Shown here piece by piece: positions 30,233 to 64,000 of a DNA stretch of 64,000 bases. The stretch's first letter is position 1, and each line of letters opens with the position of its first letter. The DNA is taken from assembly GCA_039621445.1 (NCBI GenBank), contig CP154954.1, positions 23,758,954 to 23,822,953 of the forward strand, given 5' to 3'. The translations under genes were made by a program, and so were the position numbers. The notes under the pieces are model-generated. The model had not been told where the DNA came from, did not search any database, and saw only the letters and a program-made list of their open reading frames with translations. Source of the DNA: Euglena gracilis (Eukaryota).

Positions 30233-33200
30233 TCAAGGGGTGTGCGTTGCGGGCACTGGAGCGGTGTCGGGGAGTGCTAGCCAGGGCCTCAGCGCCGTGA
30301 TCACCTCCGGCAGGGGCAGCCCCACCCCCAGGCGGCCTCGGAGATCGGGTTCCCAACACTCCTCTCCCACAGCCACAGCAACAGAGGGTCGCTTTACATA
30401 AAAACACCGACAAAGGTTTTGGTCTCGGTGGAGAATTGGGACCAAAAAAGGAATTCTTCAGGGCCAAAATCTATTCTAGCTAAAAATCCAAATATCGCTG
30501 GGGAAAAAAACACGTAAAAGCACAAAAAAACCGCAAAGTTTTGTCCAAAAAAGCAAAACGCGAAAAATAAGCATTTGCATCCCCCCTGCTGATTGGACAG
30601 GTCAACATGTACAGAAGAGCGTGGGTGTGGAGTCGGACCCTCCCCCACACCAACCCCTGCTCGATGCATCTTCCAAAGCCATGAAGCGAGAAGCCGCCTG
30701 CCCATGACGTTGTCGTACGAGCCATGCAGCCCCACAATGGCGAAGCGGCCGATCCATTCCTGGATGCCGTAGCCCTATCCAAGCCCCCACCGTCGCACAA
30801 TATGTGTATCCATCGTGTGGGTATCTCACATATACCATCCCACCCTGCGGGAAACTGTCACCTGACAAATCGGCAAGCCGGTGACCCTGACAACTTCTGA
30901 TGATGGCCGGTAACCGAGACCCTGACAAGCTCTCGGGTATGACAGTTTCCGAGGAGGGGGGCAGATCAGAGGGGGACACCCACACAATGACATCTGAGAT
31001 GTCATTGTGTGGGTGTCCTTTGTGGTAGACCAAATCTAGATACAAAGAATTGGGGTCTTGTGGAATGAGCCTGCAGTGAATCCGTTTCTCCCCATCGGCC
31101 CTGGCATTTGACCGGGAGGAAGCCCGGCCGCCAGCCTTGTCCAGTGGGTGGTAGTGTGCCACGTAGTGCTCCACCCACGAAGCAGGCAGCGACGCCATTG
31201 TGACCTGTGATGGGGGAGGGCGGGCAAAGGGAAGATGGATCGGAGGAGGTTCACAATGGGTTGTGGGACCTCGTTCGAAAGATATTTTCCCAAAGGATGA
31301 AACTGTCGCCATACTAAACAAATCCCCAACACGACAGACACATCCGTTGCAAACATCCATTACGGCAGGGTAAGGCATCCGTTGGAGGTCGGTGAGCGTG
31401 CATGTCGGCAGAGCAAGGATAGAGCACACCTGGAACCGGATGACCCCTCGCCGCTCCCCCAGCCTTCCCCCACCCAGTGGGGGAAAGAAATCAGAACTCT
31501 CGATTTGGCCCTGCACCGCCCCCTTGGACGAGAGGCTTGTACGCGGAGGATTTCTGAAATGCCTCAATGCAGACCTCGGTGCGGTGGCAAGCAGAGCACC
31601 ACGTCACCCCGTCCGTCGCCCAGATGGCAGTGAACACGGCGTGAGTCCGCCCCGACAGCCTCCCTAGCATCTGTCAGCCAGCGCCACTCTACCTCGGTGG
31701 GCGACGGCCCAGCAGGAGAGGGGGTGGGATTCAAATGAAGGGGCAGCCACGGAATCACAGAACTTTGAAGGAGAGGGCGTGGCGTTTGTAGCTCTAAATT
31801 AAAGTGGAGCCGGGCCGGATGGCATCTTCCTGGGAGGCGGGCTTGCCTAACCGCTGGCAGTCCAGCCACACCTCCGTGTCCGCTGTCAGTAGCACCTGCC
31901 ACGTACAACACACACGCACGCATGCACGCACGCACGCACGCACGCACGCACACATGCACGCACGCACGTACGCATGCACGCACGTACGCATGCACGCACG
32001 CACGCACGCACACACGCACACACACACACACACACACACACACACACACACACACACACACACACACACACACACACACACACACACACACACACACACA
32101 CACACACACACACACACACACACACACACACACACACACACACACACACACACACACACAACAACAACAAGCCATGAACTTGATTTACTCCCCCACTGAC
32201 TCATAAAAAAAATGCTTGAGCACCGCCCAAATGACGGAAGAGGCGTTAATGTGCAGCCCCATCAACCCCCAAATCCCAAAAGTTAGGGAGGATTGAAAAG
32301 ACATGACATGATTGGGTTGTGGGGCACAGAAAGCACCCAAGAAGAACTGCCCCCCCCCCTCTAGGTCCTCCTTTGACTCAGGCAGACTGCCTGACCAGTG
32401 GGTAGGCCCTCACACACCTCATCGGGGGATAAGGTGGGCAGCAGGGCCTCCGCCTTCCCCCGGGCGATGTGCAGGGCAGCCAGGCCCCTGGCTGGCATCA
32501 GTTCCACTCTAGCCTGCGTCGGGGGGGGGGGTTCCCTGATTGTGTGTCGTGTGTGTGTGTGTGTGTGTGTGTTGTGTGTGTGTGTGTGTGTGTGCTGTGT
32601 GTGTGTGTGTTGTGTGTGTGTGTGTGTTGTGTGTGTGTGTGTGTGTGTGTGTGTGTGTGTGTGTGTGTGTGTGTGTGTGTGTGTGTGTGTGTTGTGTGTG
32701 TGTGTGGGTGGGTGGGGGGGGTGGGTGTGGGGTGGTGTGTGTGTTGTGCGTGTTGTGTGTGTGTGTGTGTGTGTGTGGGGGTGTGTGTGTGGGTGTTGTG
32801 AATGTGTGTGTGTGTGTGTTGTATGTGTGTGTTGCGCCTACTGAGGGTGCGACGGAGACCAGGACCCTGAGCCAGCCTCCCATCTGCCCGCCCCCTGGGC
32901 CGTACGACCCTCCCCGTTTGTCTTTGGCCCAACGCTGCGGGAAGCTTCCGGTGGCTGTGTGGTCCCTTCATCTTCGGGACGGGCCCCACCCGGGGTCTGC
33001 CCACGGCCGCCGCGTCCCGCACGCCGGGGGGCACCGCCTCGTCCGTGGCCGCGGTCCGGACGGCGAAGGGCACGCCGAGCGTCGCCAGCAGCTCCTGCCG
33101 CCGGGGCGACGCGCTGCCCAGCACGGGGGCAGGGGCCGGGGCGCCGCGAAGCGGTGGCCGGCTACACCCACGCAGGCCCGGGGATTTTTTTTTCCAGTGG

Positions 33201-61800: not shown

Positions 61801-64000
61801 ACAAGGGCCAGTACCACACGGACCCTGCCAGGTTCTTGGGTTTAACAGTTTCGCGGGGGGGGGGGGGGAAGAGCTTCAAAAAAAGCAGGAAATGACCGGG
61901 GTTTGAAAAAATGGCAGGTGGGGGTGTCCTCCAACACAGAAACCTTAACTCCAGAAATCCACCTTGTGTTAAACCCTAATCATACCGCCTATGGTGTAGA
62001 GTCTGAGGTAGCAATGGGGTTGGGTTTCTCTTTCCTACCACTCATCTCTATTCAAGTCCGCCAAACTTTCGACTTGTGGGGCCCGCTCAGCAAAAATGCG
62101 TGCTCGTGCGCAGTGGTTGTGCCGCCTGGCACGTACAAACACATGAGCCGAGTTGAAGCTGACCTCAAAAGGCAACACAACTTAGAGCAATATGCGAACA
62201 AGTCTGAAATGTGTCCAAAGAAATGCAAATGATGTCTTCACAAACGGATATGAACCACTGTCATAAATGAAATATTGAAAGAATTGTTCATAATAACAAA
62301 GACGGGCCAACTCATTTCCCAAAGCATGAGCATGTCTCAAACATGCAAAAAAAAATAGATAATATACATACAAAAAACATACAAAAATGGGTAAAGCCCA
62401 GATTCTTCAACAATAAAGACAGTCAGTGCCAGCTCGCGACCAGCTATCATCATGTTTCCGAGCGAGGTGCATTTCCTGGAATCCACTCCGCTTGTACACG
62501 CTGTCGAAATATGGGATGTTGTACGACGCCCAGTACCCCCTCTGGTTCACGATGGACGTCATGTCTGCCACTTCCAGCAGACCTGGGGTCTGCTCCGGGG
62601 GCAGAGCACCGGAAACCAACACGAGGAATGAAATTTCTGCACGATTTTTGTTTCCTGACAGAAAAGACAAATGCAACCAGTGAATGAATGGTGCTTTGAA
62701 GACAGCCACCATGGGCGTACTTGAACTTTCTGGAGTCCAGATTTGTCCCCAGTGTTCAGCATCTGCAGGAGCAGCCAAGCAAATTGCACGCCTCTGCTGT
62801 TGAGTGACCTTTACAGAAAAAAGTCCGGAGAGAAATCAAAGCTGGCTGCCGCGCCAGGGCCCTGGGCACCACGATGAGGCCCCCCTCCTGGAGGCCCACC
62901 CCCGGCGCGAACTGTGCCAGGTCCAGCACCATCCACTGGTTGTTGTATGTGCCGCTGTTCAACATCGAGAACGGTGGCCGGGGGGGCCCGGGGACTTGGG
63001 AGGTTCCGACGGGGGCGTCGCCGTATTACGGAGGAGGTCCAGCACAGAGGCTTGAAAATGGGGCTGGCAGAACGAAGCTGGCGGCTGGCTAACCGCCCCC
63101 CACCAGTATCCCTGAGACAGTGAGAGCTGGAATGGGTCAAACCTGACACACAAAATTGAGACTGCAAAAAAAAGCAGAGCAAAAAAGCAGCCAGGCTTTA
63201 ATCTGTGAAGGCCATCCCATGTAATTTTAGCCCATTATGGCACCTTCAAAATCGAAAAAAAAGAATTCAGGGACAGAACCCAAACCCAGCGGGGAAAGGA
63301 CATTCATGCTCCCTGGGTTCACTGCCGACCTTATGTCGGGGCGCCGAATGGCTGAGAGCCTTGAAACACTGGCATCGGCGGACACTTTGGAGGACAGGTC
63401 CAAGAGGAGGTCACCAGCTGCACCAGACAGGTTGAGGATCCGTGGGAGTGGGAGGTTTATACCCCCATCACCCCCCTGGGGAGAAACCCAAGTGTTTCCT
63501 AAATCCGGGGACATGTAGTGCATACGGTCAGAAACGATGGCAATGGGTGGTCAACAGCGCATAAAATGAAAAATAGGGGTCAACCCCCCCCTTTAAGGGG
63601 TACCGAATCAGCCCAATCCCGGCCCGTTAAAGATGGGGATGAGCCAGACCACCCTCAGCCCCCTCCCCACAGGGTCCAACCTGGAGCGGAGCCAGAGGAG
63701 GAAAACAATCATGTTATCAGACGTTGCCCGGACACTGAAAAAAATGGAAAAAAAACGGGGCGGACAAGACAAAAATAAAAGGGGGAACCTTGGAAACGAG
63801 GAGGAAAAGGGGGAACCTTGCATGAAGGTTCCCCGCACGTCCGAGGTGGAGGGAACGGAGTCGAATGGTGGCGCATTGGCGGCCCTTTGGGGACGGAGGG
63901 CCGCCCCGGGCAGTTGAGCCCACTGCGTCGCGGAGCTGGCGAGCACATTGGCGGCGTAGGCCGACAGCAGAGGGTTGCGGAGGCCCCAGAGGGGCAGAGG
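58870..64000 (-). CDS. phospholipase B-like protein (PLBD1/PLBD2 family), 3' exons only; the gene continues beyond the window
   Basis: Exons 63962-63912, 62972-62868, 62596-62436, 62120-62054, 61676-61550, 59798-59734 and 59638-~59545; a last exon near 58890-58870 is uncertain. Motifs: AANVLA...[77 protein letters not shown]. Confidence 0.92.
60214..60669. mobile_element. hAT-like MITE with perfect 8-bp TSD inside a PLBD intron
   Basis: Ends CGGGGAATTTCTTAA / TTAAGAATTGCCTG and TSD ATGTTGCT (60206-60213, 60670-60677). Confidence 0.85.
60867..61009. mobile_element. 143-bp hAT-like MITE, same family as 28845-29305
   Basis: TIR CAGGGTTCAATATAA / TTATGTGGAACCCTG with flanks CCAGACCC / CCTGACCC (7/8). 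It shares the GGACACCCCCCACCTAAACC right end with the 28845 copy. Confidence 0.8.
61180..61440. mobile_element. TA-flanked MITE (Tc1/mariner-like target) with GACCCTGACA internal repeats; relative at ~61735-61868
   Basis: TIR C(n)GGGAAACTGTCA / TGACAGTTTCCCG(n) with TA at 61178-61179 and 61441-61442. Confidence 0.8.

Follow-up and report, generated by a model that had tools for sequence, protein, structure and literature searches.

We analyzed a window of 64,000 nucleotides (64 kb) of Euglena gracilis DNA (contig CP154954.1 of GenBank assembly GCA_039621445.1, positions 23,758,954 to 23,822,953 of the forward strand), in which three genes carry introns without GT-AG borders. The same window holds free-standing elements with terminal inverted repeats (TIRs) and 8-bp target site duplications (TSDs). 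An earlier interpretation made from the letters alone (the sequence-only reading) had linked the two, proposing that the introns match hAT-type MITEs (miniature inverted-repeat transposable elements) that are spliced out with exactly one TSD. The window has a GC-variable, eukaryotic base composition and a single 13-N gap; all coordinates below are window positions.

Exons were discovered by scanning G+C content at third codon positions (GC3), which revealed short GC3-rich open frames on the minus strand; judged by eye, these suggested a Maf-like, a PEBP, an alpha/beta-hydrolase, and a phospholipase-B-like protein. A Pfam run on 20 long open reading frames (ORFs) returned a weak Maf match only. 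Database queries with single exons retrieved three transcript-derived proteins, cited here by the names of their eukprot source. EG_transcript_17332 (P0001, 366 aa) aligned as 12 exact blocks from 51911 to 40498 and defines an alpha/beta-hydrolase gene of the ABHD/YheT type (ABHD; 40498–51911, minus strand; Pfam Abhydrolase_1, 1.4e-14). Its 12 coding exons are separated by 11 introns, 5 non-GT-AG and 6 GT-AG. EG_transcript_4564 (P0003) aligned as 8 blocks from 63961 to 58879 with 2 differing residues, and corresponds to the 3' part (aa 420–662) of a phospholipase-B-like gene (PLB; 58879–63961, minus strand; Pfam Phospholip_B, 3.8e-152) with 8 exons and 7 introns, all non-GT-AG. EG_transcript_25390 (P0005) aligned as 5 blocks from 38306 to 35227, again with 2 differing residues. 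It defines a PEBP-family gene (35227–38306, minus strand; Pfam PBP, 2.7e-12) with 5 exons and 4 introns, all non-GT-AG. These mappings identify the DNA as that of Euglena gracilis or a very close strain. We take the window to be nuclear DNA with four minus-strand genes, including the Maf-like gene described below, in which most introns are nonconventional.

For each adjacent pair of exon blocks, we listed every donor and acceptor position that, once spliced, translates into the transcript-derived protein. Junctions are therefore resolved at the protein level, with 1 to 11 equivalent positions per intron, while intron length and the sum of the two spacers outside the paired arms are fixed. Between 35.2 and 64 kb, 22 introns were mapped in this way. 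The 6 GT-AG introns all lie in the hydrolase gene; in the remaining 16 of 22, the enumeration left no feasible GT-AG position. Removal of these 16 nonconventional introns from mRNA is seen only at the protein level, through the transcript-derived proteins. The sequence-only reading had counted at least 18 non-GT-AG introns. Our mapping gave 16. A seventeenth, in a Maf-like gene, is predicted only (30324–30703, minus strand; GGG-CAGGCGGC...GCCGCCTG-GGGGT, flanks 5/8 identical). No transcript-derived protein was found for that gene, and a representative search gave 31 distant Maf matches (best 5e-8). A scan combining homology with the splice code allowed many alternative junctions, of which 30324–30703 was the only clear intron; it was excluded from all statistics.

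The mapped introns share a defined cut geometry. The sequence-only reading had placed one cut 3 nt ahead of the paired 5' arm and the other 5 nt past the 3' arm. This arrangement was possible in 13 of the 16 non-GT-AG introns; two others (ABHD_i1 and PLB_i1) required spacers of 3 and 6, and one (PLB_i5) fitted neither. The strict motif CDG/CH'G (+4 to +6 paired with -8 to -6 or -9 to -7) was present in 11 of 16, nine with a 5-nt 3' spacer (N5) and two with a 6-nt spacer (N6). Another four had paired variant arms (TAG/CTG, CAC/GTG, and CGC/GCG twice), and one had no such pairing. All 15 introns that fit the geometry begin with a purine, and so does the exon downstream of each. The geometry itself is already known: it is the experimentally determined code of Nomura 2025 (PMC12501133), in which knock-ins showed that 5'-N3CDG-/-CH'GN5-6|R is sufficient, that the 5' spacer must equal 3, and that a 3' spacer of 5 can be lengthened by one nucleotide.

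All introns described here lie on the minus strand and are written as 5' spacer, 5' arm, 3' arm, and 3' spacer; identity refers to the two 8-nt junction segments defined below. In the hydrolase gene, ABHD_i2 (49688–49929; GTG-CAGGGCTG...CAGCCCTG-GCCCC, identity 5/8) has spacers of 3 and 5 and contains a nested 140-bp MITE. The same spacers apply to ABHD_i4 (48976–49276; GTG-CGG...CCG-GGTGC, 3/8), for which the best automatically chosen stem lies elsewhere. ABHD_i6 (47049–48157; GCC-CAGGGTGGAC...GTTCGCCCTG-GGGCT) is flanked by GGGCTGCC/GGGCTGTG (6/8) and has 9 equivalent splice positions. For ABHD_i11 (40590–41031; GAC-CAGCGGCAGGGG...CCCCCGCCGCTG-CGGCC, 3/8), the single protein-compatible splice position is the one with spacers of 3 and 5. 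The intron with the longer 3' spacer, ABHD_i1 (49982–51856; GCC-CTGGCGTGGG...CCCACGCCAG-CCCTCC, spacers 3+6), shows 3/8 identity along the splice diagonal and 1/8 beside the arms.

The phospholipase-B-like gene contains the other 3+6 intron, PLB_i1 (62973–63911; GCC-CGGGG...CCCCG-GCCACC), with 0/8 identity beside the arms. Spacers of 3 and 5 were assigned to PLB_i2 (62597–62867; GCC-CAGGGCCC...CTG-CCCCC, 1/8), PLB_i3 (62121–62435; GAG-CTGGCAC...GTGCCAG-GCGGC, 3/8), and the TAG/CTG variant PLB_i4 (61677–62053; GAA-TAGAGATGAG...CTCATCCCTG-GCCGG, 5/8). PLB_i6 (59639–59733; AGC-CAGGGCGGGT...CCCGGTCCTG-CCCCC) is only 95 nt long and is flanked by CCCACAGC/CCCCCGGC (6/8). Its minimum free energy fold has a different terminal pairing (z 0.01), which indicates that thermodynamic folding alone does not pick out the arms. 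PLB_i7 (58936–59544; GGC-CAGGGGGTTGG...CCCGCCCCCTG-CCACA) shows 3/8 identity. The off-code PLB_i5 (1751 bp, given here as 59800–61550, one of 4 equivalent positions) has a weak best stem (GAGGCC/GGCCTC, spacer sum 6) and contains two nested elements with 8-bp TSDs.

In the PEBP-family gene, PEBP_i1 (37265–38217; GGG-CAGCGCC...GGCGGCTG-GCCCC) has 11 equivalent positions and flanks GCTCCGGG/GCCCCGGG that agree at 7/8. PEBP_i3 (35840–36476; GGG-CACGC...GCGTG-GCTGT) is the CAC/GTG variant, with flanks GCGGTGGG/GCTGTAGG (6/8) and chosen arms that differ from the top automatic stem. The two CGC/GCG variants, PEBP_i2 (36587–37161; GGC-CGCTGGCGGACCC...GGGTCCCCCGGCG-CATTC) and PEBP_i4 (35351–35785; ACC-CGCGGGGCC...GGCCCTGCG-TTGGT), each have the top-ranked stem at a spacer sum of 8 and 3/8 identity.

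If an insertion had duplicated 8 bp of exon and been cut out together with one copy, the junctions might still resemble each other. We compared the last 5 exon and first 3 intron nucleotides at the donor with the last 5 intron and first 3 exon nucleotides at the acceptor. At a spacer sum of 8, this equals comparing the 8 nt before the 5' arm with the 8 nt after the 3' arm. As a null, junctions were re-paired among introns. This gave an identity of about 0.35–0.36 rather than the 0.25 of random 8-mers, because both junctions favour pyrimidine|purine (Y|R). Across all 16 non-GT-AG introns, 63 of 128 positions were identical, against 44.7 for re-paired junctions (P=0.0001). The 13 introns with spacers of 3 and 5 gave 54 of 104, where permutations averaged 38.7 (sd 4.6; P=0.00066, or 6e-5 with derangements only). 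At least 6 of 8 positions matched in 4 of these 13, compared with 3.8% of 156 cross pairs (P=0.0012). The four 8-mer pairs quoted in the sequence-only reading are those of PEBP_i1, PEBP_i3, ABHD_i6 and PLB_i6, and all proved exact. Its hand count of 70/144 over 18 introns survives as an excess (0.49 in our recount over 16), while its chance expectation of a quarter to a third was too low.

The excess was specific to one register. In a scan of T=2 to 14, T=8 gave an identity of 0.519 and every other register 0.27–0.35. Along the diagonal, the excess ended at the arms (k=-6, 6 matches vs 6.0 expected; k=+3, 2 vs 2.1). The 6 GT-AG introns of the hydrolase gene, used as a control, matched themselves at 27 of 48 positions vs 26.0 for cross pairs, so that their junction similarity is consensus only. 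Within the window, the comparisons proposed in the sequence-only reading (shuffled pairs, other offsets and GT-AG introns) thus show excess identity at 8 only, and none in the GT-AG class. The 8-nt repeats, evidently decayed, abut the arms of introns whose spacers sum to 8 in 13 of 16 cases, the arrangement of TIRs abutted by TSD-like junction repeats.

One GT-AG intron stands out on its own account. Both junctions of ABHD_i7 (46728–46963, 236 bp, minus strand) carry CCACAGGTGC, a 10-nt direct repeat without mismatch, which gives the intron 11 equivalent splice positions; it looks like a conventional intron born by duplication or insertion. The remaining GT-AG introns of the hydrolase gene lie on the minus strand at 49313–49557, 48213–48843, 42629–46639, 41886–42481, and 41145–41772.

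Free-standing elements with the same ends were located by an exhaustive scan of the window for TIRs and their flanks, followed by reading of the sequence. All five elements named in the sequence-only reading (11456, 28845, 52563, 60214, and 60867) were recovered, and a sixth was added at 49729–49868. Each ends C(A/G)G...CTG, and each is flanked by an 8-bp TSD as hAT elements are, perfect in four (28845, 52563, 60214, and, with poly-G flanks, 49729) and 7/8 in two (11456 and 60867). Among the matches at the 8-bp register that are not simple sequence (28845, 52563, and 60867, plus 49729 with its poly-G flanks), all start with CAG. End sequences among the free elements include CAGGGTTCGATA and CAGAC(A/T)TTCATT.

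The largest element (52563–54344, 1782 bp) is non-autonomous. It lies between the ABHD and PLB genes and has perfect ends (CAGACATTCATTTA, 14/14), a perfect TSD (GGGGCTCT, 8/8), and subterminal 32-bp repeats; its 7 internal ORFs matched 0 Pfam families. A 140-bp MITE with a similar end (CAGACTTTCATT, 12/12) is nested in ABHD_i2 (49729–49868), with 8 G on each side and a hairpin fold (z -6.26). The 461-bp element at 28845–29305 has ends CAGGGTTCGATATA (14/14) and TSD CCCCTTCC (8/8). A 143-bp MITE related to it is nested in PLB_i5 (60867–61009; ends CAGGGTTCAATATA/CAGGGTTCCACATA, 12/14; TSD CCAGACCC/CCTGACCC, 7/8). PLB_i5 also hosts the 456-bp element at 60214–60669, whose ends CGGGGAATTTCTTAA/CAGGCAATTCTTAA begin CGGGG and CAGGC and whose TSD is ATGTTGCT (8/8); related pieces occur at 27162–27209 and 39508–39550. 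The 710-bp element at 11456–12165 has ends CAGTCACCTATGGT/CAGGCACCTACGGC (11/14) and TSD CCCCCGGG/CCCCCGAG (7/8). In total, three elements lie inside nonconventional introns, one is intergenic, and two are upstream of the gene region. A terminal CAG...CTG stem was present in the folds of two small elements.

Other repeats accompany these six. Partial interior copies at 46102–46384 (inside the GT-AG intron ABHD_i8, resembling the 11456 element) and 28377–28612 (87.5% identity to the 28845 element) suggest that both families have more, degraded copies. A MITE-like family of about 135 bp has ends GGGAAACTGTCA...TGACAGTTTCCC, which are not of the CAG type, and is flanked by C-runs and G-runs. One copy forms part of the interior of PLB_i4 (approximately 61742–61866), and others lie in PLB_i5 (61192–61318 and 61350–61440) and in an intron of the Maf-like gene (30845–30961). 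A further element, about 508 bp long (57711–58219), lies downstream of the phospholipase-B-like gene. It has a perfect 12-nt TIR, AACCCGGGGGGA, and flank repeats TTTAACCAA/TTTCACCAA; its duplication would measure 7 or 9 bp, according to which base is taken as the first of the TIR.

The observations suggest a common origin. We consider it probable that the nonconventional introns of these genes descend from insertions of small non-autonomous TIR transposons. Elements ending 5'-C(A/G)G...CTG-3' would insert in transcribed exons and duplicate 8 bp of target. The transcript of such an insertion would read TSD-TIR...TIR-TSD, and its TIRs could pair as a stem. If the nonconventional machinery then cut 3 nt and 5 nt outside this stem, the cut would take out the element plus exactly one TSD equivalent, since 3+5=8; the exon would be restored and the insertion silent. 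Good splicing would be expected only for insertions with a purine at TSD position 6. The intronic halves of both TSD copies and the interior would later decay, with selection retaining terminal pairing, spacing, and a purine after each cut. Descent from such elements, splicing of new insertions at once, and a hAT identity of the elements are what we infer from these data.

Several results weigh against this proposal. Comparison of the window with itself found no intron that aligns over its full length with another intron or with a free element, and the CAG or CAGGG start is the only sequence common to introns and elements; the 13 introns have 26 ends, 9 of which begin CAGGG, as do the ends of the 28845 family. 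The intron family sharing TIRs with mobile elements that the sequence-only reading envisaged is thus missing, as within the 64 kb no intron copies any repeat family. In a window of this size, such an absence is weak evidence. Elements in genes sit within introns, and none makes up a whole intron. Only 2 of 5 informative elements have Y|R at TSD positions 5|6 on the plus strand, so that not every insertion would be spliced cleanly. A search for filled and empty sites in a tandem duplication of about 5.8 kb found no indel larger than 16 bp and no empty-site pair. The duplication itself (13155–19012 and 19026–24727, 94% identity) contains TPR-like GC3-rich frames, and the 13-N gap at its joint (19013–19025) makes an assembly artefact possible. 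A metagenome scan with one 17-nt element end matched 23 contigs, only once in each and never as a pair, which we take as chance.

The intron data carry further counterevidence. Identity is at chance level (3/8 or less) in 7 of the 13 introns, and the two with a spacer sum of 9, ABHD_i1 and PLB_i1, show no repeat in the 8-register beside the arms. The nine strict-motif introns with spacers of 3 and 5, a small subset, give a weaker signal (37/72, P=0.014). Spacers do not sum to 8 in 3 of 16 introns (two with 9 and one off-code), and the non-CAG arms of four introns were placed by pairing. When the strongest terminal stem was sought without bias, a stem with a spacer sum of 8 ranked first in only 8 of 16, and arm assignment elsewhere is accordingly partly motif-guided. 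No relation between TIR quality and TSD identity was apparent by eye over the 13 introns. The sample is small (13–16 introns from three neighbouring genes), and its junctions are fixed at the protein level only. Considering both sides, we hold with moderate confidence that the observation behind the sequence-only reading is largely confirmed and its interpretation partly supported.

The hAT label is a separate matter. The terminal consensus of hAT TIRs is YARNG. Ends that begin CAGGG or CGGGG fit it (5 of 12), and those that begin CAGAC, CAGTC, or CAGGC (7 of 12) fit CAG only. Non-autonomous hAT elements share with those described here an 8-bp TSD, short TIRs starting with CAG, and subterminal repeats. 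They differ in that here a Pfam search found no transposase in the window, a result that counts against the label. The introns may instead derive from TIR elements of another superfamily with 8-bp TSDs, such as Merlin, which we regard as unlikely. This alternative draws on the missing transposase and on the lack of Pfam families among the ORFs of the 1782-bp element, and the apparent resemblance of the CAGGG end to the hAT terminal consensus would speak against it. For E. gracilis, two families of Merlin elements are already on record, with 8-bp TSDs and near-perfect TIRs (Lopes et al. 2021, PMC8101967). That report, however, gives 5'-GG as the terminus of Merlin TIRs, and the six elements here all have C(A/G)G ends.

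Two further explanations would dispense with transposition as the source of the introns. They could have arisen by another route, such as filler DNA from double-strand-break repair, with the junction repeats as scars and the CAG...CTG elements either unrelated or adapted at their ends to the host splice code so as to be tolerated. Break repair was the reading favoured by the authors who described an intron with eight-nucleotide repeats (Milanowski et al. 2016, PMC4770533), and it would suit both the absence of family copies among the introns and the perfect 10-nt junction repeat of the GT-AG intron ABHD_i7. It does not predict, however, that the length should be fixed at 8, or that the direct repeats should adjoin inverted ones, and the excess is confined to the 8 nt beside the arms and lacking as a same-intron effect in the GT-AG class. 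The window also holds elements whose ends are built identically and whose 8-bp TSDs are perfect. We therefore judge this route quite improbable. Slightly more improbable still is that the 8-register similarity has no historical basis, and reflects a shared splice-site preference, selection for slidable junctions (at which a slipped cut leaves the mRNA unchanged), or chance given the small sample. Both junctions do favour Y|R, which raises the re-paired match to 0.36; the 8-register lies on the same diagonal as the splice geometry and is not an independent axis; and 69.1% of nonconventional introns are slidable in the data of Nomura 2025 (PMC12501133). Yet re-pairing controls for a shared consensus and still gives P=0.0001–0.0007, and with the two Y|R positions removed, 36 of 78 positions remain identical vs 25.3 (P=0.011). 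Such an explanation would also leave the free elements, and a polymorphic intron with eight-nucleotide repeats, unaccounted for.

Descent from TIR elements accommodates that polymorphic intron. Intron 4 of gapC in E. agilis ACOI 323 is present in one strain only, recently gained, and bordered by eight-nucleotide direct repeats (Milanowski et al. 2016, PMC4770533). It looks exactly as a fresh insertion with an 8-bp TSD would. It differs from the introns here in species and in the explanation suggested by its authors, break repair, and the comparison extends to its published description rather than to contact between repeat and arm. The established background cited in the sequence-only reading is real and extends beyond what that reading stated, with TIR and TSD-like labels and the N3/N5 code already in print. 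Milanowski et al. 2014 (PMC3935182) put forward a MITE origin and noted direct repeats at the junctions of most nonconventional introns, at a time when no transposons were known in euglenids. A 2024 review in Mobile DNA (PMC11282704) labels the arms TIRs and the repeats TSD-like; its available text has 0 occurrences of hAT, "8 bp", or "8-bp". Nomura 2025 (PMC12501133) mentions MITEs as a possible source, with 0 occurrences of "duplication" and "hAT" in the available text. The terms "direct repeat", "duplication", and "inverted repeat" are likewise all absent from the available text of the BMC Genomics 2024 intron survey. The geometry, the idea of a MITE origin, and the TSD-like junction repeats are therefore already published. 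Our literature search found no publication that equates 3+5 with one 8-bp TSD, or that describes these free-standing elements.

The introns here do not differ from known euglenid nonconventional introns, which share non-GT-AG borders, a stem from +4 to -6 with spacers 3 and 5(-6) nt long, and a purine opening the downstream exon (PMC12501133, PMC3935182). The strict motif, present in 11 of 16 introns here, is found in 61.2% genome-wide in E. agilis (PMC12501133). In their available parts, the published texts do not tie 3+5 to an 8-bp duplication. The nearest parallel outside euglenids is provided by the introners of Micromonas and other algae (Huff et al. 2016, via PMC11282704). These are also small TIR transposons; they turn into introns when they insert, since their TSD supplies part of the splice geometry, and the element is removed with one TSD. 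In contrast to the present case, introners use the ordinary spliceosome, have a 3-nt TSD, and form multi-copy families of near-identical members. Here, a stem and fixed spacers determine the cut, an 8-bp TSD would be involved, and no intron family was seen in the window. Maize Ds, a non-autonomous hAT element, is spliced imprecisely by the spliceosome and not through its TIR stem. That Ds can create an intron was reported by Giroux 1994 (cited in PMC3935182).

The wider locus offered several additional observations. The Maf-like, PEBP, hydrolase, and phospholipase-B-like genes (30233–64000) follow one another head to tail, all on the minus strand and only short spacers apart. Such an order is compatible with polycistron-like transcription, in which case the intergenic 52563 element may also be transcribed. 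Long (CACG/CA)n and (TG)n tracts (31909–32160 and 32541–32832) occupy the region of the Maf-like gene's first intron and together form perfect inverted repeats of 65–70 nt about 500 nt apart. A 209-aa protein from Logan (P0004) results from translation straight through PEBP intron 1, exon 2, and intron 2, and is approximately 88% identical to the window. This suggests an unspliced or genomic contig of a diverged allele or strain in which these PEBP introns also occur. An Rfam search over the whole window gave 0 matches.

Where euglenid nonconventional introns come from, and why their spacing is fixed at 3 and 5, have been open questions since the 1990s. Our results overlap heavily with existing literature, and sharpen a published hypothesis into a quantitative, testable rule with concrete candidate elements. 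If the spacing does equal one 8-bp TSD, then the origin of these introns, their continuing gain, and their slidable junctions would share one explanation, directly testable with existing genomes, strain comparisons, and the published knock-in assay. Nonconventional introns make up about 72% of all introns in E. agilis (Nomura 2025, PMC12501133). It is quite possible, and we suggest it tentatively, that most of those in euglenids are fossil insertions of one architectural class of DNA transposon with CAG...CTG ends and an 8-bp TSD. The splicing machinery would then in effect be an RNA-level excision system, with cut positions 3 nt and 5 nt outside the TIR stem tuned to an element plus one TSD, exonic insertions would be neutral from birth, and gain would be ongoing. 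Euglenids would thereby be a non-spliceosomal addition to the lineages in which DNA transposons make introns genome-wide.

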